In this document: one piece after another, positions 3,203 to 31,835 of the stretch
Layout: every line of letters starts with the position of its first letter
Position numbering within the stretch: the stretch's first letter is position 1
From: Trypanosoma brucei
Lineage: Eukaryota
NCBI GenBank assembly: GCA_000002445.1
Contig: CP000070.1
Location: 1,760,001 to 1,824,000, forward strand
Length of the DNA stretch: 64,000 nt
Reading direction: 5' to 3'
Program-made: the position numbers and the translations under genes
Notes under the pieces: model-generated
Database searches by the model: none
Told to the model about the DNA's origin: nothing
What the model saw: the letters and a program-made list of their open reading frames with translations, nothing else

Positions 3203-4137
3203 GTTGAATGTAAGAAGAAGTCAACGGATTTTATTTGATTGGGAACACGACGATGGAAGATGATGCTTCGTCTTACTCAAGGCTACGTAGGTTGAGATGC
3301 TGCTTCGATGATAACAAGTTATTCAGCTGCGTGCTGTGGTTTTCCTTTATTGCTTTATAACATTAATATGCTTTACTTTTTGTTCTTTTTATTGAAGATA
3401 TAAACAGATCGGCGACGTGCTCCGGGTTCGATTTTTCCATAAGGGATTTGGGTAATGAAATGATGTATAGAAACCGCTTTAAATAGCGGTGTGTGCGTGT
3501 GTGTGTGGACGGACGGATGGTTGATGTTAGCATGTTCCAACGTACCAACGTGTGACGGAGGGCATGCAACAATATGAATATCTACGTAACCGCATGCTAA
3601 GTAATGCTTTGCTTGAAGTGACTTTTTGTCCCTTTTACAGTGTTGTGAGTGCTTTTAAATACCCAACGTGATTTTGAGACTGTAGTGTGGCGTGTGTGTA
3701 TTGTTTGAGGGAAGGAGGAAACTGTCTCTCTCCTGCATATGGATGTACATGTGCTTCAATTCCTGGCTCATTCTTTCACCAACAGCGTAGGAATGCACGT
3801 GGTTGACATGATGCGAACTGCGTGGCGCTGATGCCTGAATGCACAAAGCGGTTGGACTGAGCATCGTGCCAATACGTGGAAGCGGGATTATGCCGGGTAG
3901 ACATTTCGTGTAGACGATTGGGGTTCGATTTGCGGTGACTTGTAACATCCCGTCACTGACGTTATTCCTGACACGGAGAGTAAGGGAATTGCAGTGGCTG
4001 GGGAAGCACAGAAAAACATCTGCAACAGAGTTGTATAAGCCTAAAGCACCGCACGTTTCCACTTGCTCAAGAAGGGGACGAATTATATGAGCTGCGGGAG
4101 TGTTGCGGGGATTTGCCCGCGGTGATATGTACCTTTT
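3203..4137 (-). repeat. family 3'-flank module (inverted copy), forming the left arm of the inverted repeat
   Basis: This stretch is the reverse complement of sequence found downstream of G1 (43130..43670) and downstream of G6 (30908..31700). Positions 3360..4137 are near-identical to the reverse complement of 30908..31690. Confidence 0.85.
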
Positions 4138-5529
4138 CCACCCTTTCATTTCCAGCGTGGCAACCTCTTGATTCAGTGGCGCAGCAACCCCGGTGGTGGG
4201 GGAGTTTGAATTCAACCGCGCAAACTTTGGCGACGAGGCGTGACAATATGCCCTCAGGCTTGGGGAAGGGATCCCGACACGATCAGCATGCCCTTTGTGA
4301 ATTGAAGCCCATCGTCACTCCACTAGCGGGCAAGGCGCAGCACCGGTCGGTGATTCACGTCTGGACATCATCCTCACGCTTTCACCCACCGCTGTCGTTT
4401 CGTGCCCTGCTTTAACGCTAGCCCGTGCATGCAGATGCATCTTTTGGACGACGGTTATGTGTCGTGGTCCCTTCCAGAGCTACTGCGTCGTAGCGATGCC
4501 GCGGCCATACCATCGAAGCCTCTCCAGCCTTCATCGTAATCGCCCTGCTCTATAAGCCCATTCGCCGCAAAATGTAGTACCAGAAACGTGTCTGCGCCTC
4601 GTTCCTTCCCTGGCCAAATATCCGCAGCTGGGTTGCTCATTCGAGTTTCCCATGCGACCCTCTTCGTTTCCCCTCTTAATCACCATTGTTGAGGCATTAA
4701 TGGCGCAACTTGTGCTTCCCGTTCCTTAGCGTTCCCACCATAGGGGCTAACGTGTAGGGTAAATTTTTTGCTTTCAACGCGTTTTTCTTGGTTTAACCCC
4801 AACCTGTAAAGCGCGGGACCACCGACACTTTAACCCCGCAGGTCCCTCGTTTGATTGTCCTTTGGTGCTGATACCGTGGGTTCCATAGCGACCGCACGCC
4901 GTTTTTTTTTTATCTTCCGCACCTTCCACGCGGCAACAACATGTTACTGCGCATAACCTCGCCCGGTATTCTCGGCACTCACCCCAATGGTATTCGTCCG
5001 CAGGCGTCATATCCTTCCCCTTGGGCACAGGGCGAGCGCATCCGATAAGTTCGCTGCGGCATATGCCGGGCCCTTCCCCCACACCAAAGTTGACATTCTA
5101 CGTTTAACTCCTGCCGCAACACTCTTGCCACAGCATTGGCGGGCCAGCGTGGAGTAAGCCCGGAGCAGGCCGCTGCCCTCGCCGGCAAGCTTTTGATCCG
5201 CTTCTCCTCGGAGTCCCGATGTTAAGGCAGAATGTATTGATGTAAGCGTGTCTGCGCCGATGGGTTTTGACATTACCTTCCTACCCGGGGTGGTGGCTAT
5301 CCCGTGCGTGTTGGAATTATTTTTGGGACGAAAGAGAGCCTCAAGGTCCAAACACCCCCAGCCCAACTCTGATTTTTGATCTGCAGCTTTTCATTTTCAG
5401 CAGCCTTTTTAGCTCAACCGCCATCGCGACACCATCGGCGATTCGACGGCGCCTCCATCAACAATGCTCTGCCATCTCCACCTCGAAGGCAAGCCAGCGT
5501 CCACCTGGCGATGTGCAACAGCAATCTCA

Positions 5530-6650
5530 ACTTTCGCATTCCCTCACAATTTTGTCGTGGTCCACTGTATCGAATGCCTTCTCGTAGTCGACGGATACAG
5601 CACCCGTGCGAAATTGGTGCGTGGGACGGCGGAGGGCAGCCGGCGAGCGTAGGTGTCCAATGCGGATGGCGGAGCTCAATTTCTGTTCCAGGGCGTTGAT
5701 ATTATTATCTCTACCAATTTTCCTGCAGAGCTCGTCAACCTTGAGACGGAAATTCCTCCAGTCAGCTTTTAGCCATGCGTAGATGGGGTTTCGAGGCCGC
5801 GGGCAACTCAGTGCATCTGTTTCGTCTCCACCGATAACGTCGAAAAATATGTGATGGTGATCGGTATCGGGAGAATGCAGCGATGTCCACGTGGACACTG
5901 TGCAATTCCTTGACAGTGTCACATCAGGGCTGGACTCCCCGTGGTGGCGCGCGAACCCGGTGCACTCACCAGTGTTACAGACTAGAAACTGGTTGTCAAT
6001 TTACCACTGTGTGAGGGTTTCACCCTTGGTATTTGGCGGGCTCCCGCGATCCCATGCCAACTCGCGTGTGCATTAGCGTCTGCACCGATGAGAGCTGGGC
6101 ACCGTCAGTCGTCAGAAGCGTATCTAGGTCAGTTGCCGTGAAGGTGTGTTTTGGTGGGATGTATGCCGACGTGACGGTCAGCGCCGTTCCACATGTAAGG
6201 TGAATTGTTGCACGCACTTGTTCAATGCGACCAACAACGGCCATACCGGTCTCGACTGGCTGGCCCTCCCTCACTAGTATTGATACACCACCTCCTTTGC
6301 AGTTACGAGCTATTCCGTGATGTTGGTAGCCAGCAACGCTAAAGCAAGCCGCCTCTCCAGGCGTCATCCTTGTCTCGCTCAACAGACAAAAGGCGATCCG
6401 CTCATCAACAAGGGTTTTGTGGAGTGCTAATCTCTTTCCTTGAGATAGCCCGGCGCAGTTCCACAGCATCCCGCGCAACGACGGGCCGGGATTCTCTTCC
6501 ACATCACCGGACAGCAGCATCTTAGCGCGGATGATACTGCTGATGGCACGCTGGCACGTGCCCAGGGACCGACAAATGAAAAACGGTGTCCCAGCAAGAC
6601 GCTGCTGATCCCTGTGCTGTATGATGCCGTAGCCGAAGCAAAGCATTGTT
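5530..6650 (-). mobile_element. internal ingi fragment (endonuclease plus part of the RT region), lacking both element ends
   Basis: ORFs 6020..6766 and 5527..5922 are about 97-98% identical at nucleotide level to 28208..28951 and 27367..28110 of the full ingi. Homology breaks at about 5530 and about 6650. The fragment carries the same 98-nt frame break as the full copy. Confidence 0.85.
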
Positions 6651-7139
6651 CCCCATGAGAGGAACGCTGCTGGCTCTTGGCTTCCCCCGATGAGACGGGG
6701 TACTGGACCCTGGCACCACGTTGAGGTGGCCGGAATCGCCAGGGAATATAATGCATCAAAACTCACAGCGAATGCAGTCTTTGTAGCACAACCTCAAACT
6801 ACATGTACAGAAACAACAACAGGTAAAGTAAGGGTAAACTGGAGAAAGATTGTAAGGATTGGTGCAAATGGAAATTAAGCCTGCAAGGATTTCACTAATA
6901 TTGTCAATAAAAAATATTTACTGATTGTTTCTGCCTTTATGAGCATTGTGTTTTAAGATAATCGTGCTTTTTTAACATTTTTCTAAATTAATTGAAAATT
7001 TTTAGCAACTGTAATTTAGATAAGTAAAATAATTAAAGTTCAGAAAAATATGCATGATGATGGTTAATGGGTAAAGCGTAGCAAAGTGGGAGAGTATGAA
7101 AACTGAGTTATATCCTAATTTTGTGATATTTTTTATTTT

Positions 7140-7310
7140 GTAGGTATTGGTTAGTGTTATGGTAGTAATAGCAATTATTGTAATAATAGCAGTAATGGTA
7201 ATAATAATGATAATAATAATAGAAGTGTGTTGTGTAAGTGTGTATATACGAATATTATAATAAGAGCAGTAATGATAGTAATAATAATGATAATAATTGA
7301 CTGACAAAAT
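7140..7310 (+). repeat. 70-bp repeat block upstream of a VSG
   Basis: It contains the signature GTGTTGTGTAAGTGTGTATATACGAATATTATAATAAGAGCAGTAATGATAGTAATAATAATGATAATAAT with flanking TRR (TAA/TGA) triplets. Confidence 0.8.
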
Positions 7311-8835
7311 GGAAGCACTCAAAACAATGGCCGGGTACAACAGATGACAATGGATGAGTGACTATGAGTAAAGGAGTAAGTATAAGTGATAGAGGGACAG
7401 AGAGCAAAATGAATATTATTAAGGGAAGACAGTGGTAGAAAAGGATATGTAATATTCACATTCACCGTCACAAACATGACTACTGGAACCAGCATACACA
7501 AGGAAATAATAGTAGGGAGCATGAGGAAGAAACAAAGTTCATTGTAGAGGATAAATGAAGATGCTACGTTATCCGCCCAAATAGTGATAGAAAACCCTAC
7601 TAAGCAAAACAAAATACGGTGTGAAATGATAGAATTCTGATACCGAACAGTGCGTGTACTTGAAAGAATAAGCATTAACAACTGATGGTGCCAGTTTTTT
7701 ACCCGAAAATGAATAGATGGAACTGCAGAGATAGCAGCAATTGTAATGTTTAATGTGATGGCAAATAGTAACGTATTGAAGTGCAAGCAAGAAGTGAAGA
7801 TTGGGTAAGCGTGACTTAATGTCGAACTTTCCTTTTCATCAAATATAAAAATAATAGCCAACATCTGTTGGAAACAGTATTACACTGTTTGGCAGAGAAT
7901 TTTAAAACTGTGACTACTAACGGCTGACCTTGTAAAAACTAAAGAATAACCCCGTGGGAACTGCTTCAAATAGCACATGAATCAAACAATGGAGGATCTT
8001 TATGAAGTAGAAAGGTTCTTTTATGGTAAAACACAAATTCCATATTGGTGTGCAGCTGAATAATTGAAAGCATTTAGAGAATGAAAAAATTATATATTGA
8101 TGATAACCGACCTACATTTACTATACCGCATAAACTCTTGCTGAGACAAACCTCAGACTGCAGTTTACGACAAAATTAAAAAGTCTTTGGCATGAACAGC
8201 CAAAAATGGTCCCGACTGCACACCGCAAGCAACTGAGTAAACGGGGCCGTGAAAAGCAGCAATGCTACCTGATTACTTTGTCCAGCATGTAATAGAAAAT
8301 TTCCGACAAATAAAAGAAATGACAAAACATAGTCTTTGAATTATAAAGATTATTGAGATTGACGGTAATTTTAAAAATTTTGAAGTATTGGAGTTGTGGA
8401 GGAAGAGAATGGACGCAACAGATATAAATGTTGAAAGGTATAGATTGGTGTTGCAACTGTTAACTGCTGGAAGATCAATATTTGGTGGAGGCGGCCGTAT
8501 AGTTTTATGATTTAACACATTTTTTAATGGAGGCTGTCGTGATGTGAAAAGAAGAAAATCGCCGTTAGTCTTTAAACATTAAATATCTGCGGAAAAGATA
8601 AGACCAAAGATATTTGTAACAGGGCCTCCATGTGGCGAGCAGAAGTGGTAACAGTACAAAGCGATAATTCGAAACCTGCCGAAGCAAACAGAGCGCAGGA
8701 CTTGTGCCTGCAACAAAGAAAACTTGTGGCTTATCATTTCTTCTCAAATCCACTGAAAAACTGCACCACCAACATTATGTCTTTTCAACCACAATTCAAG
8801 GTGCACAAGCAGAATCAAAAAGAAAGCGCTACGAA

Positions 8836-10308
8836 ATGCTAATCCGAGCCTTCATAACTCTGGCATTTCTTTTCGCACAGAAAGTCGCAGAGACGAGCGC
8901 AGACGCCAACAAGCCGTGCTCCACTGCATGCGGCTGCAAGAAGAGGTTGCACGCTCGCCTAGGACTTTACACGACGAAACTCAAAGAAGCCAAGCAAACA
9001 AATCACCAAAATCTAAAAGAATACAACAGTTTGCTACTTGCTGCAGCCGTAGGCTCCCCACTCGACACGACGATAATCTTACCAATACTAGCAGGAAGCG
9101 GCGAACTAATTCAGCAATGCAACGAACAAATATCTGCGGCAGACAAAGCAGTTGCGGCGGCGACAATTAAGGTCGGGGAAGCAAGCGGCGTCTACAACGT
9201 CATACACAAACTAAAGGACGGCATGGGCAAACTTATGATCAACTTCGGAGGCGGTGACCTCCAATTGCCGGCAAGCAAATTCACAAGCCGCACACTAGGT
9301 GGTATTAACGCAAACGCCTGCTGCAGCAGCAACAACGGCGAGGAAGGCGTCAAAACAGACTTAGAACACGAGCCCAAGGAACCGGAACCGACCAAACTAA
9401 TAACACACGCTTACCTCGAAGCAAAATGCGACAGCAACCCAGGGGCGCCAGCAACCTGCCACAACGCAGCGGTGGACCAGGACACGCAAATAAGCATAGG
9501 CCTCGGCTTTGGCAACGGCGCCAAAGATGAGAAATCAGCATGGGGAGCCGGGAGCCACACAAAGATGCACAAAATAGCTAGCACGGCGGTCGACTTTTTC
9601 AGCAGCAATGAAACAGCAGCCCACCAAGCGCTAAAGGCGCTCGCAACAGACAAAACAGGACTCCCCGCATGCCATTCCTTACAAGACTTCGGCGCCATGG
9701 CGGAGACAAGAGCGTTCCAGCTTATGCTGCTGAAGCTTGCAGCCGGCAAACCAGAAGCAGAAAAAGTAGGACCAGATGATAGACAAGATATCGACTCAGC
9801 GATAACGAGCAGCTACGGTAAAAGTGGGGCAAACTACAAAGACAAGATATGGGACCAAATACAAAAAACAGAAGTGCCACAAGGAAAGCAAACAGGAGAA
9901 AAAACAGCAGCACTAGAAAAAGGGGCAGACATAAAGCTCCAAACGGAAGCATTGGCCAGGTTATTTGCAAAAGAAATAAAGGAAAAAAAGCAAGCAAAAA
10001 CCACACAAAAAGTTAGTAAAACAACAGATTGCAACAAGCAAACAGAAAAAACTGCAGAGGAATGCAAAAATCTTGGCTGCGATCATGATGCAGAAAATAA
10101 AAAATGCAAACCTAAAGCAGGAACAGAAAACACGGCACCAGGAGCAGGAGCTACAGCTGGATGCACAAAGCATGGCACTGATAAGCCAAAGTGTGAAGGT
10201 GACAAAAGCTGTAAAGGGAATGGAAAAGAATGCAAAGATTCCAGTTTTATTGTCAATAAGAAATTAGCTTCAATGAATGCTGCTTTTGTAAGTTTTATAG
10301 CATTTTAG
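8836..10308 (+). CDS. VSG: variant surface glycoprotein (VSG), apparently intact (the ORF is also open from 8704)
   Basis: A signal peptide MLIRAFITLAFLFAQKVAETSA is followed by an A-type N-domain and a Cys-rich C-terminal domain. It ends with the canonical GPI-signal tail CKDSSFIVNKKLASMNAAFVSFIAF-stop. The conserved VSG 3'UTR element (gctatatttaaacac) follows. Confidence 0.85.
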   Translation: MLIRAFITLAFLFAQKVAETSADANKPCSTACGCKKRLHARLGLYTTKLKEAKQTNHQNLKEYNSLLLAAAVGSPLDTTIILPILAGSGELIQQCNEQISAADKAVAAATIKVGEASGVYNVIHKLKDGMGKLMINFGGGDLQLPASKFTSRTLGGINANACCSSNNGEEGVKTDLEHEPKEPEPTKLITHAYLEAKCDSNPGAPATCHNAAVDQDTQISIGLGFGNGAKDEKSAWGAGSHTKMHKIASTAVDFFSSNETAAHQALKALATDKTGLPACHSLQDFGAMAETRAFQLMLLKLAAGKPEAEKVGPDDRQDIDSAITSSYGKSGANYKDKIWDQIQKTEVPQGKQTGEKTAALEKGADIKLQTEALARLFAKEIKEKKQAKTTQKVSKTTDCNKQTEKTAEECKNLGCDHDAENKKCKPKAGTENTAPGAGATAGCTKHGTDKPKCEGDKSCKGNGKECKDSSFIVNKKLASMNAAFVSFIAF

Positions 10309-11494: not shown

Positions 11495-13050
11495 ATGAAT
11501 GGCCAAGCTAATGCATTAGTTGTCACACTTTTCTTAGCAACAAACCAGGTGTCACCAGAAATCACAGCTGACGATAACGCGCTGGAGTTCAGAGCGCTAT
11601 CCCAATTTGTAAACATGGCAACCGTGGGTATCAAAACCGCATTGGCTCCACAAATTGACAAGGCAGCAGCGGCTTACATAGGTGCGCTCAACCTTACACT
11701 CGCAGACAACACCATCGCAGCGGCGGTTGACGAGGCAAAACCATGGGAACAATTAGGAAAGCCACAGCAACAAGCACTAAGCGGGAGGAGTGACTACTAT
11801 GAATATTGGCAACCAAGTAAGAAACAGATCACCGAGCACAAAAGCACAATCGAGAGCTGGATTCCCAAAACGATCACGCCACAGTTAAGAGCCAAAGTTG
11901 AAGAGTTAGCTTCCAAAGCAAAAGCAATCTACGAGCAGAGGGCCCCATCTTACACAATCACGGAACCCGTGGACCAGCTCATTAACGGAGTTTTGTACGG
12001 CAAAGCGCAACCTATAACGACATGAAAGATCCACACAGCCTCTAGCCGAGAAGCAGTGTGCTCTAGCCAGGCAAGTACTCAACAATCGGAAGCCGGTAGC
12101 GCGCTGCTGCTAGACCTGTTGTGCCTCTGCAGCTTCGACGGCAGCAACATCGCAACAAAAAAGCTTGTGGCGGACACTTGGACGCTGCCGTAACGAACAC
12201 AGGGTAGAACCCCAGCACTGGCGGTGCAGCAGAGGCAGAAAAACTTAAGACCGAATGCGCAAACTACGGCGCAGCAACACCCCTCACTCACGAATCTTTG
12301 GCGGCGGCCTGGGCCGGTCTGCGGACCTTAATCAAACCGGACAAAGTAACAACCACCAAAACAGCCAAACACATCCTGGGAAAAGTTGGAAGCACAGGCG
12401 GTTCTTACGCTGGCTGCAGCGGACGGGTCAATATCAACGGAGGGCAGTGTGTTCAATACAAGGACGAGCATTTCAAAAACAGCAAAATAACCATTCCCTG
12501 GAATGTAAACCTAGAAAACGCCGTCAAGCGAAACGCGGAAGAGGTCAAGCACGGTCTACTAATAACACAAGAAAACGCAGAACTGAAGCAAATGAACGAA
12601 ACAATAACAGCCCAGCTGGCGGGGTTCATAAAACCCCGCAAGCTGCAAAACCATCGGCAGAAAAAAAGTGACGCCTGCGCAGAGCACAAAACTAATTCGA
12701 TATGCACAAAAAATAACTGCAAATGGAATGGAACTACTGAGGACAGGGGAGAATACAAAGTAGACGAAACTAAAGTTAAAGAGCAGACAAACGCAGGAAT
12801 AGGAGATGGAGAGCAAACCTCAAAATGTACTGGACAAGACACCAAAGAGAAATGCGAAGCCGTGCAAGGGACAGCTCCCCCTGGCAAAAAATCTGTTTGT
12901 GTTTGGATAAAAGGAAAGTGCCAGGATTCCAGCTTTCTCCTCAATAAAAAATTTTCTCTGAGTATGGCTGCTGCTTTCGTGGCCTTTCTATATAAAGAAC
13001 TTTTTATTAGTTCTGTGAAATTTATGAAAATGTTTTTAGATATTTTTTAA
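11495..13050 (+). pseudogene. VSG: VSG pseudogene, with the frame broken between the N- and C-terminal parts
   Basis: The N-terminal part sits in ORF 11495..12025 and the C-terminal part in ORF 12298..13050, in a different frame. The total span of about 1.55 kb equals one VSG. The C-terminal part ends CQDSSFLLNKKFSLSMAAAFVAFLY. Confidence 0.7.
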
Positions 13051-14893: not shown

Positions 14894-16440
14894 ATGAAGG
14901 CTTTGCTGACAATCGCGGCAGCCTTAACATGTCGTCTAACCCGTGGCGCTGAAAACGCAGACGGCGGTGGCTTATCAGCAAAGAGCCTAGCAACGTTGTG
15001 CGACTTGGGTGGCGACTTAAAACAAGCAGCCTACATAATGTCGACCAAACTTAAAGCACACGACGCTGCTATCCAAATACACCTGAAAAAGTTGCGGATT
15101 CTGGACACCCTTGAAGCGTGTACAAACAGCGAACGAAGGATCAAGACTACCCTTGCGCGGCTGATGTTAGCGGATTATGTACAGCATACAACAGCTCGCA
15201 ACGCAGCAGCGGAAACTGCGGTCGCAGCTGCAGCAGAGTCGGCATACTGGCCTGGCCGGCTTGACGAACTGGTAGCCATAGCAAAACAAAGCACGACAGC
15301 AACAGCCGATGCAGCATCGGAATCGATTTGCTTAGCAAACGTCGAGGCAGGACAAACAACTGCCAACGGACTCAAACACGACAGCGACCTGGCAACAGCA
15401 GGGCTCTCAGGCTGCAAGAACACGCAATCTACGACAGAGAAAACGGCAACCGCAATAAACATCCAAGAGCGGCTAAATGCGATAGGCAAAAAAAACGGCA
15501 TCTACGCTTCAGCGCCAGCAAACCCAGGCTGTATCTTAACCAAAAAAAGCACGGCGCACTACTATAAGACCCTCACCGGGCCAGCCACGCTAACTTTTGC
15601 AGGTGGAAGCATCCAACTGACGGCGCAAAACGGCGACACTGCCCCAACGAGCCAAAAACTCGGCGTAACCCAGTCAGGCAGCACATACAGCGCAAAAGCA
15701 GGCACTGGAATCAAAGAAGCCACAGACGCCGCCGCCCGAGGCATAACTGCAAGCAATATAGAAGGCCCTAAAACGCAGACCCTTTTAGCAGACGGAGCAT
15801 GGGAAACGGCGAAGAGCAACAAACTGTTGCAAGAAGCACTAAACCCCCATGAGGACGTTAGTAGCAAATACAACGAAGGCCTTCCAGAAAGCTCCAAGCC
15901 ACTGTACAGCGAGATCAGCAAACTCCACAAGAAGCTCGGGACGACGCTAGAGGCACTCGAAGCGAGTGGAGACTTTGAAACAAAGCTCAGGGCAAAATTC
16001 AGCGGCAAAAAAACATGCAAACAACCGACCATCGAAGTATCAGCTGCAACCGGCTGCAAGCAGTACTACACAAACACAACCTGCAGAACAGACAATAACT
16101 GCAAATGGGATAGCACTACAGAGGATAAAGGAGAACATTGCAAACCTAAAGATGGAGAAGAACAGACAAACACAGCAGGTGGAACAGAGGGAGCTGCAGC
16201 AACAGAAAACCATAATTGTGGCCAATATACGGATACAGAGAAATGCACCAAAGCCATAGGCAAACCGAAAGAGGGCAAAAATCTGTTTGTGTTTGGATAA
16301 AAGGAAAGTGCCAGGATTCCAGCTTTCTCCTCAATAAAAAATTTTCTCTGAGTATGGCTGCTGCTTTCGTGGCCTTTCTATATAAAGAACTTTTTATTAG
16401 TTCTGTGAAATTTATGAAAATGTTTTTAGATATTTTTAAA
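14894..16440 (+). pseudogene. VSG: VSG pseudogene with a C-terminal frameshift
   Basis: The N-terminal ORF 14894..16300 is VSG-like (MKALLTIAAALTCRLTRGAENADGG...) and ends GKNLFVFG-stop. The canonical tail CQDSSFLLNKKFSLSMAAAFVAFLY continues in the +1 frame (16216..16458). The frame break sits exactly at an A5-versus-A6 homopolymer, where a block shared with the previous VSG begins. Confidence 0.75.
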
Positions 16441-18381: not shown

Positions 18382-19925
18382 ATGCCACTCTATGCTCTTA
18401 CAGCAATATTTCTAGCGCAACTCGCGACGCTGAAAACGCACGGCGCATTCCAAGCCGAGTGCGCCGTGCGTTTTCAGCCGTTGTGCATGTTTGCGGCGCT
18501 GGAGGACACCACACCAAAAGCTGCTGAGATAGAGGAAGTACCCGATGCTGAAATTCAGGACATAAGAACAATGAATATGTCGGCAGCGGCCGCTGACTGG
18601 CAGAAGCTGTTTGCCGCAAACGGAAAGGATCTCAAGTGGGCGGACGTCAGTAAAGGCGCGACCGCAGAACCATACCAAACCCACTGGTCGTCAACATTTG
18701 ACGGCTGGGTTGCAGATAGAAAGAGGTTGGATGAAACAAAAGGCGGACAAAAGTGGCTCGACCTCAACCCACCACCAAAAACTCAAAAGGGTCGTGAGGC
18801 AGCGACGGAAAAATTAAATAAAACATTGGACTCAATACTAAAGCTAAAAGCATCTTACGACCGAGCGAGGACAGAGGTAATGACAACATTTCCGGCCCAA
18901 GCAAAGAGCAAAGTGCTACAGGCTCTTTACGGAGAAGGCGCAACAGAAGCTAAGCTAACAACCGACAAAACAATCGCCCACGCAAGCACGTACGCCAGCG
19001 CATGCGGAGCCAACGGGGGGCTCTCAGTTTACGGAGATATCATGTGCATATGCGGTGACACAAGCAGTGCAAATTCAGCGGTCTGCACAAACACCAACAT
19101 CAACCTGAAATGGGACAGCGCCGTCGACGACACCAGCATTGCAGCAGCAAAAGCCAAATGCACGATAAAAACCAAAACACCATACACGGCAAAGACGCTA
19201 CTAAACCTAATAGCCACGCTCTCAAGCAGACTGCGGCATGAAGCGAAGACAAACGCGCTGCAAACATACTTAGGCAAAACAAGTGCGCAAAGATGCGACG
19301 GCGGCGGGAATGCGGCCTGCGTGATCTACACCAAGTACTTCAACGCCGCAAAGGACACGGCAGGGGCAGAAACCATACCGTGGATTTCCAGAATAGCAGC
19401 GGCAGCGAAACTACTGGAACAGGCGGAGGCGCAAGCAGGAGAAGCAAACTCCATGCGGCGCAAGACAGAAACTCTAATTCAAAATGCCAAAGCAGCATAC
19501 AAGTCCAAGCGTTATGATTTCGAAGCAGCGCCGAACATCGGACCTCAAACCGAAACAAAAGACTCACGAACACTCGCAAACAAATGTGAAAAACACCATG
19601 CAAGCCCAGATAACTGCACCAAGGCTGAATGCGACTAGGATACTGAAAATAAAAAATGTAAACCTAAACCAGGATCAGAAAGCACAGCAGCAGGAGCACA
19701 AGATCAAGCGGGAGGAGCAGATACAGGAACTTCAACTGGGTGTGCAAGGCACGGAAATGACAAGACGGCCTGTGAAAATGACAAAGCAGGCGATAAGCAA
19801 AATTGTGCGTGGAGGAAGTGGAAAGATAATGAGGACGAGACTGAAAAAGAAAAATGTTGAAATGGTAGTTTGCTTGTATACAAGAAAATTGCTCTCATTG
19901 CTGCTACATTTATTAGTTTGGTAGC
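18382..19925 (+). pseudogene. VSG: VSG pseudogene (B-type N-domain) with an in-frame stop and a frameshift in the C-terminal domain
   Basis: MPLYALTAIFLAQLATLKTHG opens a VSG-like N-domain. A TAG falls at 19636 after KAECD. The Cys-rich C-domain continues in other frames and ends with a hydrophobic tail RKLLSLLLHLLVW in the frame of ORF 19484..19924. Confidence 0.7.
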
Positions 19926-21241: not shown

Positions 21242-22885
21242 ATGCTCGGAGATAGAAAAACCCAAACAACCCGCCTACTAATTGCAATCCTTGTGCTACT
21301 AACGGCCTTACCACAGTGGGTGGTGCCGGCTGCTCACATGGGGCTGCTTAAAGCAACATGGCAACCACTTTGCGCGTTGACAAAAGAACTTGACGAAGTC
21401 CCAGGAGAAGCGTTACAGGAGGTAATGGCCATACTCAGCAAGGCTTCAGAACTCGAAAAGGAGGCAATGATGCTCAAAATATACTCGGCACTGACAGAAT
21501 CAGAAAGCGAAGCTAAAAAGGCGACAACGGTAGCGGCTCACATGCGGAGATTAGCACACTCCCAAAGGCAATACTTCATGACAATAGATGCACAAAAATT
21601 TCTCGCAGCCAGCAAAGCGAGCGCATATGCAAAGGGACGACTAGACGAGTTCCTTCAAGTGGCCGGTTCGATGAAAGACAGCAGCAACCGCGGGTGTTTA
21701 TTAGCGGGTAGTAACCAAAACGGCCTAAAACTTACTGACGGCGCACTCGACGGCGTCCAGTGCAAAAACAGTGCGAGCCAGGTAGCCGCTACCACCAGAG
21801 CTACCAAGACGATAACAGCAGCCGGCATATCGGGCCCAATCCACGGGCAGGAAAGCAGCAACAGGATCCAGCACAGCGCCAACGAATGCAGGCTATTCGG
21901 CAAAACGCACGCCAACGGTCTCGGGCACACGGCAGCACTAGAAAACCCAAAGCTGGTATGGGCCGGGGGCTACATCACAATCGATACAAGCAGCGGAGAC
22001 GACGGCAAGGTCACACTAACACAACTAACACCAGCAGGGACACAGACGAGACCGGAAGCCAAACCTTGGCAGGACTGCATAGAAGCAGTAGGGGCTATGC
22101 CGACAGCTGGCTCACCAGCGTACACCAATGACACAGCTGTTCTGGCGACATCCGAAAGCGCAGCCGACCTATTCGGCCGCGTACAGAAAAATATAGAGGA
22201 CGGGACACTGAGCAACACAAAGACAGAAATAACGGCAATGTTCGGCGACCAACCAGAGGTTCAAGTAAATAAATTGCTAAGCAACGCAGCGAATTATCAA
22301 CTAAAAGAAAAAATCGGTGGCAAAAATAAAGGCACTAAGCTGAATGAGATCGGCACAGCTGCTGAGCTAGAAGCGGTCCTGGCAGCCGTGGACATAAAAC
22401 TTATAGAAACACGATCAAAATTGATAAAACAACTTAACGAAGAAAAGCAGAAAAAGGGGGGAGATGATACCACAAAAACAAGCGAAACAGATGAAACTTG
22501 CCAAGCAAAAGGAACAGGAGATAAATGCACTTCCCCATGCAAGGAGGTCGAAGAAGGCGGCAAAAAGAAGTGCACATTGGATAAGGAAGCTAAACAAACA
22601 GCAGAAGGAGCAGCAAAACAAGAAGGGAAAGATGGAAAAACTGTAGATTGCAGTAAACTTTACACACAAGAGAAATGTGAAAAAGCCAATGAAGGCCAAG
22701 CCACAAAAGTTTGTGGATGGAAGGGAGAAAATACTGATGGATCTGACAAATCCGGTTATAAATGCCGAAACGGTAGTTTTCTAGTAAAAAAACAATTCGC
22801 CCTCAGCGTGGTTTCTGCTGCATTTGTGGGCTTCATAGAATTTAAGAGCTCGAAGGATAATACGAATTTTCGCTTAATTTTTTGA
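21242..22885 (+). CDS. VSG: variant surface glycoprotein (VSG) with a 13-aa read-through past the usual terminus
   Basis: It has a signal peptide, an A-type N-domain and a Cys-rich C-domain. The tail NGSFLVKKQFALSVVSAAFVGFIEF is present, but the ORF continues KSSKDNTNFRLIF before its stop. That suggests a mutated canonical stop, so this may be a pseudogene. Confidence 0.75.
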   Translation: MLGDRKTQTTRLLIAILVLLTALPQWVVPAAHMGLLKATWQPLCALTKELDEVPGEALQEVMAILSKASELEKEAMMLKIYSALTESESEAKKATTVAAHMRRLAHSQRQYFMTIDAQKFLAASKASAYAKGRLDEFLQVAGSMKDSSNRGCLLAGSNQNGLKLTDGALDGVQCKNSASQVAATTRATKTITAAGISGPIHGQESSNRIQHSANECRLFGKTHANGLGHTAALENPKLVWAGGYITIDTSSGDDGKVTLTQLTPAGTQTRPEAKPWQDCIEAVGAMPTAGSPAYTNDTAVLATSESAADLFGRVQKNIEDGTLSNTKTEITAMFGDQPEVQVNKLLSNAANYQLKEKIGGKNKGTKLNEIGTAAELEAVLAAVDIKLIETRSKLIKQLNEEKQKKGGDDTTKTSETDETCQAKGTGDKCTSPCKEVEEGGKKKCTLDKEAKQTAEGAAKQEGKDGKTVDCSKLYTQEKCEKANEGQATKVCGWKGENTDGSDKSGYKCRNGSFLVKKQFALSVVSAAFVGFIEFKSSKDNTNFRLIF

Positions 22886-23699: not shown

Positions 23700-26600
23700 G
23701 CAATGGTGATTAAAGTCTCATTGTCAAACTGTTCGGTAAGGGGAGTTATCACAAAGCAACCTTATATATTCTTAGTACAAATCAACTTAGCAGCTCAACT
23801 AGCTGCTGAAATTCCAACAGCAATGCATAGAGGAAAATGTAAATGAAAGGAGTAGCAATACACATGTAGTGTGATGTCAAAGCTATGACTGAAGCTATAT
23901 TCAAAAACAAAATTAGTAGATGCTGCACTAAAAGATACAACATATAAACAGCTGTGCGCACTGGAAGAGGAACCGGAAAAGACACCTTCTGTTGTAGCGG
24001 CAGCGTTAGAAAAACAGAAAACGTCACCGACGACATCCACAGCCACCGGCACAAAAACTTAACATTAAGTAAACTTAGTTTCAGAACACGAAGGCTGACG
24101 GTAGCACCAACATTAGGTCTAATATAGGTTAAAAAAGCAAAGAACGTTCGAAAAAAAAAAAGCAGAAAACAACCCGCCGCGGGAAATAAAGGCTCTACGA
24201 TAAAACAGGGGTCTTTTGGTCCCTGTGCAACAAGTGGCTGACATTCTAAGTCTCCAGCCTCATCAGTGAGTGGTGACCAAGTAGCGGACCCTCGAACATC
24301 AACGCGAAGAAAAAATGCGCACCTAAAGGTTTGAAAGGAAATATGCACACCTTTCCAACAGCATCTCCAAATCAAGGTGTAGCATAAATTGAAGACGAGG
24401 TCTACAACAAGCAAACGAAAACAACCGCAATTTAAAATTTTTTTTGAATTTTCTTCCCGCCTTCGTGGGAGTTTCCCCCCACTGGCGCGGCCATCAGCCA
24501 TCACCGTAGAGCCCTGAGATGCTATCGGTCTGGCAACTGTGGTAGAGTCTCCCTTTTTTATTCAGCCTAACACACCCTCTATAATTTTTTGTTGTAGCTC
24601 CGCATTTGAACGGAATACAGCAAATGGGGCGAGAAGCCTCCCACCCTGGACTCTCCCAAAGATGTCAATTAGCAATCCTTTTGTTTTGATTTTTGTTATT
24701 CGTTTATTATTCTCTCCCCCTTTTTATGTTTTTGATGCTTGTTGACTGCATACCCTCTCTGTCTCTGAGGGTGTCTGGACTATTCCTGCGTCCGGTGCTT
24801 TTCCTGCTGGCTCCACACTCGGCAATAAGGGGGGAAGTTGCAGAAGGGAGAGTGGGTTGTATGACTGTTACATTAGGTGAGGACTTCACCTGCGGCCGGC
24901 TCCGTTCAACCGCAATGAGAAATTGCGCCAGCCTTTTAGAAAAACATACATCTTGCACACACAACCACCCTCTACCGCAAACCTGACACGTAATTCCTTC
25001 AAACCGTGACAGCTCATCAAGTGCAGCGACGTTTCTTCGCAGTCGCCGCGTTGGCTGGTAACAGCGCGCTCTACCTTCATACCGTGCATCTTCTTTTGAT
25101 GTAGGGTGAGGCCAGTTTTGCTAGCACACTGCCTTCCGCATGTCGGGCACACCAACATGGATCTGTTTGTATGCGGGGAATCAGTGGCACACAATTTTGT
25201 GCTTTTGCTGCATTTAAGCTCGACTCCCTCACCTTTGTGGAAAGCCTTACAGTGTCGGATGAGGGAGCCCCTGCAACTGAGCACTTTTTGGCACACACCA
25301 CACTGCACCTCGCCTCTCCCCGGGGCTTCAACGTTTCCCTCACGGGCACTCTTACGAGGAAATTGCACCAACACCACGGTACCGTCCTCCGTCACTATGC
25401 TCTTATGTTTGAATTTCTTGTGTAGTGACAGGGAAGAGCGTGTACCGAAGCTCGCCTTGCACAGGTCACATTGAAACGGCAGCTTCCGTGTATCCTGAGA
25501 GACTGGTGCTGCTGGGACGCTACATTCTCCTTGCACTGAGTCCTCGTTTTCTCGCCCGCTTTTCACGCGGCAACTACCGCTACCTATGCCATGTATTGTT
25601 TGAAGGTGGTGTAATAGTCGGCCTGGCACTGCGAATTTGGAAGCACAGAGGGTACAATGAAGCACCTGCGGTCTCATCGGGACTCGTGTGCTCGATGGTA
25701 GAGGAACAATCGCCACCACTGGAGGGGGCTCCGGGGGGATGTCCACTGCAGGTGTTGCATCGCCGTATTTGATCCTCCGGATGGCATCAGCTCGCACAAA
25801 GCCATGTTTGTTTACCATATGCGTTACAGCACTCGACCGGCATTGGTATGTGCCATCATATTCCGTACATTTGGTCGGTTCGGAGGTTCTCTGAAGAGTG
25901 CGTGTCGCAATAGGTGGGGCCGTTTGTATTGTTGGCCCCATCGCTGCATGTTGCGGGTTGCACCATCGGCACTGTGGAGGCACACTCGGGTTGATCTTTC
26001 GCAACATCCATCCATAGTGTCTTGAAGACCCAACCCGAAAGCGTGCCAGTGCCGTTTCTTCTTCCCTCGTCAGTTCTTCTTTATGTTTTGTTGGAAAGTG
26101 GTTGCCCGTGATACCAAACCTATGAGTGTTCTCATGGACTTCTTCCGACCTAAGCACTCGCTTCGCATAAGCAATGATGTCGGGGATCCACGTGTCTCGC
26201 AACTGTGGCAAATCTGCGGCCTTTTTGGCCATGTCATCGCAAACCTCATTCCGTTTCACGCCACAATGGCCGAACACAAATTGCAGTCGGATACGCACCT
26301 TCCTTCTCTGAACTTGAAGCAGAAGCCTCCATAGTCGTCTCAGAATTGGGTCCGTTACGGCTAGGGGGCCTGTCCGCAGTGCTGTTAACATTGACAGCGA
26401 GTCAGAGAAGATGGACAACCTGCTCGGTGTGCTTCTGTATGCCGGGAGCCATTTCAGCAGCCGTTGCAGTCCTATTTCTAATGCTACGCATTCCGCTCTG
26501 TAACTGCATGAGAGTTCCCCTGCTCCAGTTTTGGGTGCGCAAATCAGCGTGTTGTTTCTATAGAGCAGGGCAGCTGCTCCGGACTTCTCACCGAGGGACA

Positions 26601-28938
26601 CGGATTCATCAGTCCACAATTCGTAGTGCTTTCGTCGCGGTGGCTCCCTCCCCCTCCGTGCAAAATGCCGTGCCATCCACTTCTCGGAAGCCTCCCTTTT
26701 GACATCGTCAGGGTCATCAGCGCACACAGGCTTTATCTGCGTGTGAAATATCGGTCGGCAGCTGTGGCGGAGCGTCGATGTCTCTAGTGGGTGCTCGCGT
26801 GGCTCAATGTGGAAGTGATTGTAGGACCGCATGATGCGGGAATGTAGGGCTCTGACTGGGTGTTTGCTGTAGTATACTTCCTCAGCATTGCGGCGCAAAC
26901 ATCCGCCTCGTGACTCTCACATCAGCATGAATTTCATACTGCGTACAAGAGTGCTCGTCTTGAGTGGCAGGAGGTTTGCTTCCAGCAGAGAGTCCTCTTT
27001 GCGCGTCCCATGCGGTATGCCAGCTATGATTCGACTGGCTTTGTGTGGCGCTGCTGACAGGATATCACGACTTCGTTTCGAAGCGTCCCAGTACCATACC
27101 TCAATGCCATACATGGTGTGTGCCTGTACGAGTGCTAGATAAAAAGCTTTCAGCACTTGTCGTCTTGGCCCCCATGTAGAAGCTGAGATGGCTGCTATCT
27201 GCAGTAGTCTGAAGTCCATCTTGCGTCTCGTTTCGGCCGCATGTGTTGCCATCCCTTGCAGACACTAGAATGTTACTCCGAGAAACTTCGGTGTCCTGTC
27301 AGCTCCCATTCTTTCGCCGTCCAGTTGCAATGTAAGGGGGTGGCGCTCTGTACACCCGAAGAGTATTCACTTCGTTTTCGCTACGTTGACAGACATGAAG
27401 TACTCTTTTGACCACTGTAACACCACGTTTAGGCCGCATTGTAGTGTGTGGTTGATGACATCCCTCTCTGTGTGCCTCGCAAGTAGCGTTAGGTCGTCTG
27501 CAAAGAATCCGTGTTGCAGTAACGGCACTTCTGCAAGGCGTTGCTGGCTCAACGAGTTCATGACAATAATGAGCATGATTGGGCCAAGGACAGTTCCCTG
27601 TGGCACTCCTCGCTCAAATGTTCTGCTTCTGGAAAGCTTCTCCTTGAATCTCACTCTGCCAGTTCGGTTACTCAGAAATGATACGCACCACTCCACAACG
27701 TGGGGTGATACCTTCATTCTGTGCATTTCCCTCACAATTTTGTCGTGGTCCACTGTATCGAATGCCTTCTCGTAGTCGACGAATACAGCACCCGTGCGAA
27801 ATTGGTGCGTGGGGCGGCAGAGGGCAGCCGGCGAGCGTAGGTGTCCAATGCGGATGGCGGAGCTCAATTTCTGTTCCAGGGCGTTGATATTATTATCTCT
27901 ACCAATTTTCCTGCAGAGCTCGTCAACCTTGAGACGGAAATTCCTCCAGTCAGCTTTTAGCCATGGGTACATGGGCTTTCGAAGCCGCGGGCAACTCAGT
28001 GCATCTGTGCCGTCTCCAACGATAGCGTCGAAAAATATGTGATGGTGATCGCTATCGGGAGAATGCAGCGATGTCCACGTGGACACTGTGCAATTCCTTG
28101 ACAGTGTCACATCAGGGCTGGACTCCCCGTGGTGGCGCGCGAACCCGGTGCACTCACCAGTGTTACAGACTAGAAACTGGTTGTCAATTTACCACTGTGT
28201 GAGGGTTTCACCCTTGGTATTTGGCGGGCTCCCGCGATCCCATGCCAACTCGCGTGTGCATTAGCGTCTGCACCGATGAGAGCTGGGCACCGTCAGTCGT
28301 CAGAAGCGTATCTAGGTCAGTTGCCGTGAAGGTGTGTTTTGGTGGGATGTATGCCGACGTGACGGTCAGCGCCGTTCCACATGTAAGGTGAATTGTTGCA
28401 CGCACTTGTTCAATGCGACCAACAACGGCCATACCGGTCTCGACTGGCTGGCCCTCCCTCACTAGTATTGATACACCACCTCCTTTGCAGTTACGAGCTA
28501 TTCCGTGATGTTGGTAGCCAGCAACGCTAAAGCAAGCCGCCTCTCCAGGCGTCATCCTTGTCTCGCTCAACAGACAAAAGGCGATCCGCTCATCAACAAG
28601 GGTTTTGTGGAGTGCTAATCTCTTTCCTTGAGATAGCCCGGCGCAGTTCCACTGCGACCCGCGCAGCGATGGACCGGGATTCTCTTCCACATCACCGGAC
28701 AGCAGCATCTTAGTGCGGATGATACTGCTGATGGCACGCTGGCACGTGCCCAGGGACCGACAAATGAAAAACGGTGTCCCAGCAAGACGCTGCTGATCCC
28801 TGTGCTGTATGATGCCGTAGCCGAAGCACAGCATTGTTCCAAACGAGAGGAGCAATGACGTTCCGTCTGTGCAGAAAGCGAGTTTATGGGCCTTGGGGCC
28901 GCGGTGGTGTGGGTGATGTTTTCGCTGAATGAAAAGGC
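23700..28938 (-). mobile_element. ingi non-LTR retrotransposon, full length (about 5.2 kb) but degenerate; the 3' boundary is uncertain by +/-300 bp
   Basis: The 5' RIME terminus reads GGGCCTTTTCATTCAGCGAAAACATCACCC on the minus strand, ending at 28938. The minus-strand ORF occurs in pieces. Piece 28208..28951 is APE-type endonuclease. Piece 27367..28110 is reverse transcriptase, with the FADD motif. Piece 24886..26898 holds RNase H and C2H2 zinc fingers. Piece 23782..24504 is the tail. Confidence 0.9.
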
Positions 28939-30907
28939 CCCGCCGGCTCATTCGCGTTGCGCGGGAAGAAGATCAAACCACCTCAGATGTGAATGTTTTT
29001 GCTTACTGAAATAAAACTGTGCTGGGCCAGTCTCGTCGTGTCCGGTGTTTGCGCACCTGAAACTCCCTTTTGTGGTGGAATATCTCCTTTAGGGACTGTT
29101 CGAGTATGTCGGGGTTTTCAGGGGCAGCGCGAACCTACTGCGCGCAGTGGATTGGGCTCATTTTCCAAGGCGGAGTGGTGGCGGTTCTTGGATACACGGC
29201 CGATCCGCAGCTGCGAGTTCGTCAGCGCCAGCCCTTCGGACCTCAGGGGGGGGGAAGTTAGGGCCTGTTTCCCTTTCCAAATCCCCTCAACTACTGTTGC
29301 CTAAAAGAATGCAGGGAGTAGAACCGGAGGGGGGAAACGTTGGGTCCGCCCCGCGTGAAAGCGGTTGGGGCGTACGTCAGGCTTCGCGAGCTGGGGGCGG
29401 TTGTGTTTCGCGTGGGTCCGTTATATTTACCCCTTCCGTTTGTATCCCCACTAAAGAGAAAGTGGTATCCCGATCCACGCTGTATTGCTTCGCCGTGTGC
29501 AATTGCTGTGCCGCTGGGGAGTGCCTTACGGCGTCGTGGGACCGACGTGGCTCGGGGACTTAAGGTGCGCCCTTAAACACCGTGGCTGCTGGCTGGTCAT
29601 GTGTTTATGCTTTGCGATGTGAGGCATTGTGGGGTCGGGCCTTTATGCGGACCCCCGAGGCGTTAGCATGCTTGGTTCTATCGATCATCTCTGTTTGTGC
29701 GCGTATGGTTTCCCCCTCCGTGTTTCGGTGAGGGCAGTGGATGGGGAGATGTCACTGAACAGCGTCGCTGTTGATTATTGTTGCTATGTTATTTTATTTT
29801 CCTAAGGCCACATTGTGGTGCCTAAATACCCGGGTTATCGTCACGCGCATTTATCATTTTTCTATTTAGCCTTTATAGCTGATCCTTCTTTCAAATACAT
29901 TTGCTTGTTCTAGTTTCATATATATATATATTGCAAATGGCAGCTTGGTGCACTTGTTCCGTTGTCGGGGTGATTATTTTCAGAGCGTATATACACCGCT
30001 TGTGGGTGATCGCGGTTTCAAGCCGGTTTACTTTTGTTTTTGAGGACATGTATTGGGGGTGTTACCACTTTTTTGTTCATTGACATTGTACACTTTTTTG
30101 TTTCGGTAAAAAGAAAAAAAACAATGACAGTGATATTTTTTTTTTTCGCTTACCTTCTATATATATACATATATATATATATATATACTTGTCGGTGATA
30201 TGTGTTTGTGTTTGGTGCTGATAATGCTTGCGCTGGGAGTTTCTTTTGTTGGCGTTTGTTTTCTCTGTAAATAAGATCGGCTTTCATTTCACCAATAGTC
30301 CTTGTAATATATCTTTTTTTTTCTTTTTTTTTCTAGGGGGCCATTAGTGCATGTAAGGAGCACTCTTAAGGGAACTTTTGTCAGCAGAATAATCAATGGT
30401 AAGTGTTTTACTTTGGCCATTGCGAGTGCGCTGGACTTTGGGAGCTGGTACTGATACTTCTGTCTTGACGGATTTAAAAAAAAGACAAAAAACTTCACAA
30501 CTATTTCCGAAAGAAAGTAAAGTTTATCCTCTCAAATCAAGTGCGGATCTGTCCCTTTGCACACGCGCTGGTTGACAATAGGTTGATGAGTGACATGTCT
30601 GATCACCTTGTGGTGCGGGTCTTTATTAATTGTCTTGCACTTTATTGATTCATCTGCGCTTTGGCGACTTAGGCGGAGTAGAGGATTGCCAATTCCGTCC
30701 CTTGGAATGGTTTACCGTCTTATTTTATTTTGTTAACCCAGTTGTCTTATGTGTATTCCTTTGTCGGTTGGTGCGAGCTGTGGGTGGGATGCCGATCGTT
30801 TTTTCTTCTGCAACGGCAGAGAGTAGTGCTGATGGATATCGGTAAAGGGTGTTTGCTGCGTCGGTGAAGTAAGTATATCAATAGAAAAGGTACGCATATA
30901 CTAAACA

Positions 30908-31835
30908 TATCACCGCGGGCAAATCCCCGCAACACTCCCGCAGCTCATATAATTCGTCCCCTTCTTGAGCAAGTGGAAACGTGCGGTGCTTTAGGCTTAT
31001 ACAACTCTGTTGCAGATGTTTTTCTGTGCTTCCCCAGCCACTGCAATTCCCTTACTCTCCGTGTCAGGAATAACGTCAGTGACGGGATGTTACAAGTCAC
31101 CGCAAATCGAACCCCAGTCTTCTACACGAAATGTCTACCCGGCATAATCCCGTTTCCACGTATTGGCACGATGCTCAGTCCAACCGCTTTGTGCATTCAG
31201 GCATCAGCGCCACGCAGTTCGCATCATGTCAACCACGTGCATTCCTACGCTGTTGGTGAAAGAATGAGCCAGGAATTGAAGCACATGTACATCCATATGC
31301 AGGAGAGAGACAGTTCCCTCCTTCCCTCAAACAATACACACACGCCACACTACAGTCTCAAAATCACGTTCAGCATTTAACAGCATACACGACACTGTAA
31401 AAGGGACAAAAAGTCACTTCAAGCAAAGCATTACTTAGCATGCGATTACGTAGATATTCATATTGTTGCATGCCCTCCGTCACACGTTGGTACGTTGGAA
31501 CATGCTAACATCAACCATCCGTCCGTCCACACACACACGCACACACCGCTATTTAAAGCAGTTTCTATACATCATTCCACTACCCAGATCCCTTATGGAA
31601 AAATAGAACAGCCACCATGGCACTTTTCCCACAAGCTCATCAGGCCCAAAGGAAGAAAATGAACAATCTACATATTGCGTTTAGTATAGTGTAAGTGAAA
31701 AATAAAGCAATAAAAACAACACTAGTGAACACCGACACGACCCTTCACCACATAAACAGGACCATTACTATTAACACTGTTCTAACAAACTAACCGACCA
31801 ATAATTGAGCGATAATCACACTATCTACAAATAGA
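30908..31835 (+). repeat. family 3'-flank module downstream of G6 (parts B and A plus R), forming the right arm of the inverted repeat
   Basis: Positions 30908..31690 are near-identical to the reverse complement of 3360..4137. Positions 31283..31828 match the R module that recurs after each family gene. Confidence 0.85.

Follow-up and report, generated by a model that had tools for sequence, protein, structure and literature searches.

An inverted repeat of Fam10/SGM1 3' flanks around a VSG array in the core of Trypanosoma brucei chromosome 7

Introduction

Short subtelomere-like regions have been described at strand-switch regions in the chromosome cores of trypanosomes (Tiengwe 2012, PMC3607257), and the available text of Jackson 2013 reports that species-specific surface-gene families (Fam1, Fam4-7 and the ESAG6/7 pair) adjoin strand-switch regions (PMC3605285). 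Fig. 5 of Reynolds 2016 places a gene cluster of chromosome 7 at the convergent strand-switch region (cSSR) 7.7, position 1750-1800 kb (PMC4721609). According to the part of that paper available to us, H3.V and base J keep the variant surface glycoprotein (VSG) genes of cSSR 7.7 silent, the marks being located "upstream of and within" the VSG cluster, and in the H3.V knockout Tb427.07.6510-6530 are up 3-5 fold and Tb427.07.6500 is up about 1.6-fold. Large inverted repeats are also known from TREU927 megabase chromosomes, where IR1-IR7 have as their key property that they are a source of Argonaute-bound small interfering RNAs (Tschudi 2012, PMC3447711). As for the Fam10/SGM1 genes, the available text of Vigneron 2020 states that they are co-expressed in metacyclic forms and that SGM1.7 is a surface antigen (PMC7007551). 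Here, we analyse a stretch of 64,000 nt from T. brucei brucei TREU927 chromosome 7 (CP000070.1, 1,760,001-1,824,000; hereafter the window, to which all plain coordinates refer), in which the two arms of an inverted repeat, each one located in the 3' flank of a Fam10/SGM1 gene, bracket a block of VSG genes and ingi elements.

This locus is like cSSR 7.7 in chromosome, approximate position and gene content, and the IDs Tb427.07.6500-6530 fit its gene order, as far as the available text of Reynolds 2016 goes (PMC4721609). We consider it probable that two Fam10/SGM1 genes close the converging units at cSSR 7.7 and that the repeat is the 3' flank they have in common, with a silent array of five VSGs and ingi debris between them.

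Results

Anatomy of the inverted repeat

The two arms are:

3426..4130, + strand: left arm, family-shared at 3426-3756 and arm-only at 3757-4130 (repeat search, blastn and MAFFT)
30905..31609, - strand: right arm, holding a TREU927-specific tract of 7 single-nucleotide polymorphisms (SNPs) at 31371-31391

The arms have 705 nt and align without gaps and with 17 mismatches (97.6% identity), results on which the repeat search, blastn and MAFFT agree, and the spacer between them has 26,774 nt. A match of 705 nt at 97.6% cannot have arisen by chance in 64 kb. The original prediction, made from the letters of the window, had proposed an inverted repeat of 0.8-0.9 kb bracketing the VSG/ingi block, with essentially identical arms at 3360..4137 and 30908..31690. 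The repeat is real and was found in the right place, but it is shorter than proposed, its gene-proximal end having been overextended by about 66-80 nt and its inner ends being off by 3-7 nt. Near-identity applies to one part of the arms only, as the mismatches are unevenly distributed, with 14 in the proximal 331 nt (3426-3756) and 3 in the distal 374 nt (3757-4130), which are 99.2% identical between the arms in TREU927.

The left arm begins 337 nt past the stop codon of G0, a Fam10 gene on the + strand, and the right arm begins 418 nt past the stop codon of G6, a Fam10 gene on the - strand, which agrees with the initial description of each arm as the 3' flank of a family gene. Each arm is composed of the distal 331 nt of a 3' untranslated region (3'UTR) block of the family, followed by 374 nt that are unique to these two terminal genes. 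In the tandem Fam10 copies, the position equivalent to 3756 is followed by the 5' region and the signal peptide of the next gene, and the local alignment of the arm-only 374 nt with the sequence after the UTR block of those copies gave a score at the shuffle mean. No RNA family or notable signal turned up in the arms. The arm-only part was also considered as a decayed Fam10 gene, a candidate that was rejected, the tblastn searches with Fam10 proteins giving E > 0.1.

Before 3426, the alignment of the flanks of the two arms is essentially random (MAFFT). This outer boundary (3426 / 31609) falls at the point where the proximal 3'UTR of the family switches from one variant to the other, G0 having the type found at 43143-43723 and G6 the type found after the gene at 36133-39417. 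It is therefore a mosaic edge at the level of the family, which leaves the inner boundary (4130 / 30905) as the sole unique junction. The sequence ACCTTTTC is found directly past the left arm (4131-4138) and, past the right arm, at 30884-30891, after a 13-nt insert, TTAGTATATGCGT. This sequence lies past both inner ends, and the duplication of the flank may at first have reached 8 nt further.

The Fam10/SGM1 genes and their shared 3' flank

Seven Fam10 genes and one conserved flank are involved:

2295..3089, + strand: G0, the Fam10 member SGM1.1 (Tb927.7.6490, AAZ12713.1), last conserved gene of the + unit; translation identical to the TREU927 protein
3176..3756, + strand: family-shared 3' flank (3'UTR block), of the kind found after all seven Fam10 genes (blastn, repeat search)
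32027..32638, - strand: G6, terminal Fam10 gene of the six-gene array (AAZ12716.1); identical protein in TREU927, T. b. gambiense DAL972 and both T. equiperdum assemblies
33330-34013, 34724-35431, 36133-39417, 40006-43059 and 43709-44515, - strand: five further tandem Fam10 genes (translations, paralogue identities)

SGM1.1 is Tb927.7.6490 (PMC8509897), SGM1.7 is given as Tb927.7.6600 in the available part of Vigneron 2020 (PMC7007551), and the same Tb927.7.6600 is the representative gene of Fam10 in Table S1 of Jackson 2013, again in its available part (PMC3605285). Our linking of accessions to Tb IDs rests on gene order. The order of the GenBank accessions would fit G0 as 6490, the VSGs as 6500-6540 and the six genes of the - strand as 6550-6600, and the gene at 43709-44515 would be SGM1.7/Tb927.7.6600.

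All seven members, with G0 as the sole one on the + strand and six on the - strand, are marked by a signal peptide, a domain of some 150 aa and tails of variable, acidic or repetitive sequence, and the motifs YYNAI.YIE and CGFW.SF are common to G0, G6 and the other five proteins. The mutual identity of these paralogues is only 23-46%. G0 and G6, which are not each other's closest paralogues, have 31.5% identity over 127 aa, and therefore the arms are not what is left of a whole gene duplicated recently in inverted orientation. At the nucleotide level, the 3'UTR block keeps 95-98% identity across the seven genes, except for a more divergent stretch in one copy; the 3176-3756 segment is 95-98% identical to 43143-43723, 34109-34547, 35515-35845 and 32735-33043, and is partly so to 39410-39723. 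The homology of the left flank with other 3' flanks of the family, which had been recognized at the outset, reaches 3176/3194.

Some further features of the family were observed. The conserved block of the tandem copies continues across the intergenic region into the signal peptide, where MNLAKKIIVCLFIAILCNVGG is identical in three genes, and the general pattern of Fam10 is one of hypervariable mature-protein cassettes within conserved flanks. The genes at 36133-39417 and 40006-43059 (- strand) contain about 2.5 kb each of 18-nt tandem repeats, encoding hexapeptides (GPKESA / GSEGSA and variants) in about 140 units per gene, and their proteins have roughly 1,000-1,100 aa. In a Logan contig of 3526 nt (ERR7929159), the 3' part of G0 (window 2475-3258, 99.9% identity) is fused to unrelated DNA with TBCA and phosducin/thioredoxin genes. 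The junction, at 2742/2743 of the contig (window 2475), is sharp and lies within the coding region of G0; it could represent a chimeric assembly, an engineered line or a real rearrangement.

The same locus in other genomes

The TREU927 locus was compared with those of T. b. gambiense DAL972 (chromosome 7, FN554970.1, 1,799,066-1,849,183) and T. equiperdum IVM-t1 (chromosome 7, CM010678.1, 1,874,061-1,924,088), both taken as 50-kb stretches rebuilt through exact-protein look-ups. The two are collinear with positions 1-38,700 of the window, in the same orientation, the 70-bp repeat tracts being the sole places where the alignment is interrupted. The stop codons of G0 and G6 lie 28,938 nt apart in TREU927, 28,712 nt in DAL972 and 28,622 nt in IVM-t1. 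Both arm boundaries are at identical nucleotides in the three genomes, as seen in the alignment of the six arm sequences, and the sequence just outside the arms sorts into a left and a right type, with 0-2 differences among orthologues versus about 70 per 100 nt between sides. Within each of the three genomes the arms diverge by 2.4-3.3%, and no inverted or empty allele of the block was seen among them.

Since layout, orientation and boundaries are the same in the three genomes, the structure is older than the split of these Trypanozoon lineages, among which it shows no polymorphism. The repeat appears to have driven no inversion in the three genomes sampled. A dynamic or recent event, as the original prediction had it, is not supported. 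The same arrangement with diverged arms is present in DAL972 and IVM-t1, an outcome that the prediction itself had named as counting against it and which indicates an old and stable structure, and the inversion that had been put forward as a source cannot by itself create a duplicated arm. The arms are not an assembly duplication, as three independent assemblies carry both of them with variants of their own.

Outside these three genomes the locus is covered only in part. The contigs of T. equiperdum OVI break at the family repeat. In T. congolense, matches to the neighbouring genes (the 760-aa gene and the FHA gene described below) are on contigs of 2.6 kb and 12 kb. The larger one (CAEQ01000744.1) contains an 838/845-aa gene, the N6-adenine methyltransferase and the FHA gene, syntenic and co-oriented with the right side in T. 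brucei, and stops 1.6 kb beyond the FHA gene, at the place where the Fam10 array of T. brucei starts. A 155-aa ORF (open reading frame) on this contig is not a Fam10 member, as blastp and hmmsearch were negative. The T. conorhini contig ends at the FHA gene.

Exchange between copies

The identity between strains depends on the class of sequence:

Single-copy coding and intergenic DNA: 99.1-99.9%
Arms: 97.7-97.9%
ingi copies: 95.5-98.4%
VSG coding regions: 88.7-99.6%

The arms differ between strains about 4 times more than their single-copy neighbours. The excess is restricted to sequences that have paralogues elsewhere, which is the signature of ectopic gene conversion. In the three genomes, the number of differing sites is 15-25 for orthologous arms and 17-23 for paralogous ones. 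Within the arm-only part, the left arm of TREU927 differs from the right arm of T. equiperdum at 1 site and from its left arm at 9 sites, and these same two arms are grouped by sites 3882/3915/3918. Sites 3448/3475, in turn, separate left arms from right arms, while sites 3667/3674 are common to both arms of T. equiperdum and site 3662 to both arms of T. b. gambiense. These partitions are mutually incompatible, and no single tree fits them, neither left versus right nor by genome.

Exchange with other members of the family is also visible. The right arm of TREU927 has 7 clustered private SNPs (31371-31391, corresponding to 3644-3664 of the left arm) that match exactly the flank of the gene at 40006-43059. 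They form a short conversion tract, gained after TREU927 split from the other two genomes. Several other apparently strain-specific variants of the arms are also present in the flanks of other paralogues. From these site patterns we infer that conversion of the arms is probably ongoing, with variants that are mosaic between arms, paralogues and genomes.

A similar contrast was observed inside the block. VSG3 and VSG5 are 88.7% and 94.1% identical to their T. equiperdum counterparts and VSG4 is 96.8% identical to that of T. b. gambiense, versus 99.5-99.9% in their intergenic flanks, a divergence that suggests segmental conversion of archive VSGs in place.

Interior of the repeat and chromosomal setting

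The following features were found between the arms:

4131..5535, no strand: segment A, GC-rich, at the inner junction of the left arm; no Pfam match, 98.7-99.1% conserved in T. b. gambiense and T. equiperdum
5536..6770, - strand: 5' fragment of an ingi element (2A peptide, endonuclease and start of the reverse transcriptase, RT), cut off at 5536; DVEENPGP and RT motifs in ORFs
7173..7297, + strand: 70-bp-type repeat tract upstream of VSG1 (mutual blastn matches, TRF)
8704..10308, + strand: VSG1, probably Tb927.7.6500; Pfam Trypan_glycop_C, E = 6.9e-13; 490-aa gene in T. equiperdum
11495..13050, + strand: VSG2, frameshifted, two ORFs in TREU927; Pfam VSG_B and Trypan_glycop_C on separate ORFs
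13237-13392, 16621-16704, 20178-20435 and 23104-23369 (the last one on the + strand): similar 70-bp-type tracts (mutual blastn, TRF)
14894..16300, + strand: VSG3, a-type; Pfam Trypan_glycop and C-terminal domain
18226..19638, + strand: VSG4, b-type; Pfam VSG_B, E = 5.2e-56
21242..22885, + strand: VSG5, AAZ12715.1, "VSG, atypical"; exact TREU927 protein; Pfam Trypan_glycop, E = 1.1e-101
23781..29030, - strand, ends approximate: degenerate full-length ingi with several frameshifts; Pfam RNase H, C2H2 zinc fingers and RVT_1; DVEENPGP 2A motif
29031..30904, start approximate, no strand: segment B, bordering the right arm at its inner junction; rich in GC as far as about 29.7 kb, AT-rich and low-complexity beyond

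The Pfam and blastn results bear out the composition first proposed for the interior, in which five VSG units and 70-bp-type repeats are accompanied by an ingi fragment and an ingi. The 70-bp-type tracts are found upstream of four of the five VSGs, with an additional one past the last VSG (23104-23369). Four of the five VSG units are single long ORFs in TREU927. VSG2 is intact in T. b. gambiense DAL972, as a 462-aa gene with VSG_B and the C-terminal domain, and for the third VSG of T. equiperdum there is only a 351-aa call. The decay of the VSG array is lineage-specific. The long ingi has its domains in order on one strand over about 5.2 kb (2A peptide, AP-endonuclease, RT, RNase H and C2H2 fingers), Exo_endo_phos_2 having been assigned on the T. 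equiperdum orthologue. Its reading frame is broken, and it is thus a degenerate copy. The 5536-6663 segment of the fragment is a direct repeat of 27723-28851, with 97.9% identity (blastn).

The interior had been described as wholly of subtelomere type, and this is mostly correct, but about 3.3 kb beside the arms (segments A and B) matches nothing identifiable. Segment A had no match in Pfam in six frames and no similarity with ingi or segment B (blastn with word size 7, tblastx), nor does segment B resemble segment A or the ingi body; both are conserved in all three genomes compared. At about 4176-4200, segment A contains GTGGCGCAGCAACCCCGGTGG, which may resemble the conserved 5' signature of ingi/L1Tc-type elements.

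Three predicted proteins match TREU927 GenBank entries exactly: the N6-adenine methyltransferase (AAZ12723.1), the 547-aa VSG (AAZ12715.1) and G0 (AAZ12713.1). To the left of the VSG/ingi block, Dus, TsaD, a 760-aa gene and G0 are on the + strand, and to the right the Fam10 array, an FHA gene and the N6-adenine methyltransferase are on the - strand. ORFs are oriented to the + strand as far as 22885 and to the - strand starting with the ingi, and the cumulative GC skew turns at about 24-30 kb. With the genes to the left on the + strand and those to the right on the - strand, the VSG/ingi block fills a convergent strand-switch region. The locus has the layout of a chromosome-internal VSG array, since VSG cassettes (a 70-bp-type repeat plus a VSG ORF) are flanked by converging clusters of core genes, and the claim that the arms bracket subtelomere-type material inside the chromosome core is upheld. 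The scans of the window for tRNA genes and Rfam families revealed neither. The upstream neighbour of G0 is:

14..1432, + strand: C-terminal part of the conserved hypothetical 760-aa gene; ORF 100% identical to T. equiperdum TEOVI_000247000

A gene of 759/760 aa is called at the equivalent place, as left neighbour of G0, in two other assemblies.

Discussion

Origin and maintenance of the repeat

In the reading preferred here, the structure would be an ancient tail-to-tail Fam10 pair, whose centre would have taken up subtelomere-type material, or have arisen jointly with it, before the subspecies of T. brucei separated. The likeness of the arms would be due to recurrent gene conversion, taking place between them and, in their proximal part, also with other Fam10 3'UTRs, rather than to a function of the repeat as such. 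The VSG/ingi block would occupy a transcription-termination zone and be silent there. Regulation of genes through their 3'UTRs is established in trypanosomes. For this reason, and in view of what the available part of Vigneron 2020 reports (PMC7007551), the 3'UTR block may be kept for post-transcriptional control and probably serves the coordinated metacyclic-stage expression of Fam10. Insertion of the VSG block into an ancestral family locus is plausible; alternatively, duplication and junctions may stem from one and the same event. Each end of the block has an ingi piece, both in direct orientation, and these hint at ingi-guided recombination with a subtelomeric array, but the junction 5535/5536 is non-homologous.

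Several points count against this reading. The locus was matched to cSSR 7.7 through the genes it contains, their IDs and its approximate position rather than through coordinates, and the H3.V, base J and expression data come from Lister 427, according to the available text of Reynolds 2016 (PMC4721609). The sole outgroup contig, CAEQ01000744 of T. congolense, ends before the Fam10 region, so the origin of the structure cannot be read there. The 3757-4130 segment is a putative 3'UTR. Conversion was read from site patterns in three genomes, each one a collapsed haplotype of a diploid, and allelic recombination or haplotype-mosaic assembly could add to the site incompatibilities, although such allelic effects would not explain variants common to left and right arms. 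Finally, the high identity could instead reflect purifying selection on a functional element.

In trypanosome RNA processing, downstream trans-splicing is coupled to polyadenylation, and the two terminal genes are without a downstream trans-splice site to couple to. This would suit arms that are a functional module under purifying selection with little conversion, either a cassette for 3'-end formation or termination or a boundary for H3.V and base J, as would the extra 374 nt carried by both terminal genes and only by these, and their 99.2% identity in TREU927. The placement of H3.V and base J "upstream of and within" the VSG cluster, in the available text of Reynolds 2016 (PMC4721609), points the same way. 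We nevertheless consider such a module unlikely, since selection predicts low divergence and the arms are the most divergent segments apart from VSGs and ingi (2.1-2.3% versus 0.1-0.9% in single-copy neighbours), their variants move between copies as blocks, and no RNA family or notable signal was found in them. It is very doubtful that the arms are a selected symmetric "end-of-unit" module, in which a flank of about 0.7 kb closes both units and frames the silent VSG block. Such a flank might set where H3.V/base J termination begins, and read-through might yield a long hairpin or antisense RNA against the Fam10 3'UTRs. If this were true, the metacyclic expression of Fam10 would be tied to the state of the termination zone, and a rare crossover between the arms would flip the VSG block, the other unit then reading the VSGs in sense.

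Inversions have also been considered. The staggered-break model, proposed for Drosophila, creates inverted duplications at both ends of the inverted segment. One ancient event of this kind, turning G0 or the array and creating convergence and duplicated flank together, would predict what is seen at the arms, inverted duplications at both ends that stop at the same nucleotide, and would suit the fact that G0 alone of its family is on the + strand. It remains improbable, because the outer boundary at 3426 is a switch between family 3'UTR variants and no unique breakpoint, both arms are in their natural family-flank context and the VSG/ingi content is left unexplained. A recent or still polymorphic event, with the VSG block inserted or inverted in a tandem family locus and the arms as an active inversion substrate, is highly improbable. 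A repeat of 705 nt at 97.6% is long enough for homologous recombination, the homology stops at the same nucleotide in both arms, and the change of side of the arm-only haplotype (left in TREU927, right in T. equiperdum) could result from two successive inversions with different crossovers. However, order, orientation and junctions are identical in three genomes of different subspecies, the arms have diverged inside each of them, the inner flanks keep their own side in every genome, and an inversion alone does not duplicate an arm. To an assembly artefact, in which one arm would be a mis-assembled copy of the other, we assign practically no probability. In its proximal half the arm consists of a family repeat with seven copies, of the kind that breaks short-read assemblies, and the T. 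equiperdum OVI contigs do stop there, yet both arms exist in TREU927, in DAL972 and in the separate chromosome-level assembly of T. equiperdum IVM-t1, each with private variants and with its own unique flanks on both sides. Because these independent assemblies all carry both arms with variants of their own, an assembly duplication is excluded.

Significance and comparison with described systems

The locus shows a piece of the antigen archive sitting stably in the chromosome core, between two tail-to-tail copies of surface-protein genes. It reveals neither a new kind of element nor an active rearrangement. It is a clean natural example of ectopic conversion raising the divergence between strains, as the surrounding unique DNA diverges more slowly than the arms, the ingi copies and the coding regions of the VSGs. 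The more useful point for trypanosome biology is probably the family-wide 3'UTR block. Being 95-98% identical while the proteins have diverged to about 30%, it is a candidate control element for the metacyclic-stage expression of a proposed vaccine antigen family.

We found no published description of this inverted repeat. Reynolds 2016 deals with H3.V/base J-dependent termination and de-repression, and in its available text there is no mention of the inverted repeat, the shared Fam10 flanks or the ingi copies (PMC4721609). The papers on Fam10/SGM1 deal with proteins and expression, and the near-identical 3' flanks and the tail-to-tail layout across a VSG block are not described in their available parts (PMC3605285, PMC7007551). 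The repeat is like IR1-IR7 in being a large inverted repeat of a TREU927 megabase chromosome, and its 705 nt fall within their range of 422-10,011 bp, but those have arms 99-100% identical in loci of 3.6-12 kb, compared with 97.6% and a 26.8-kb spacer here (PMC3447711). The chromosome 7 entries of that table are at 1.125 and 1.889 Mb, the present repeat being absent from it, and the region is not among the chromosome 7 convergent units listed in the same paper (PMC3447711). With the cases of Tiengwe 2012 and the available part of Jackson 2013 the locus shares surface-gene families and VSG/ESAG-type material at strand-switch regions (PMC3607257, PMC3605285); what it has in addition, and is not reported in the former or in the available text of the latter, is an inverted duplication of the flank of the neighbouring genes that frames the block. 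The feature is a previously undescribed inverted repeat inside an already described locus.

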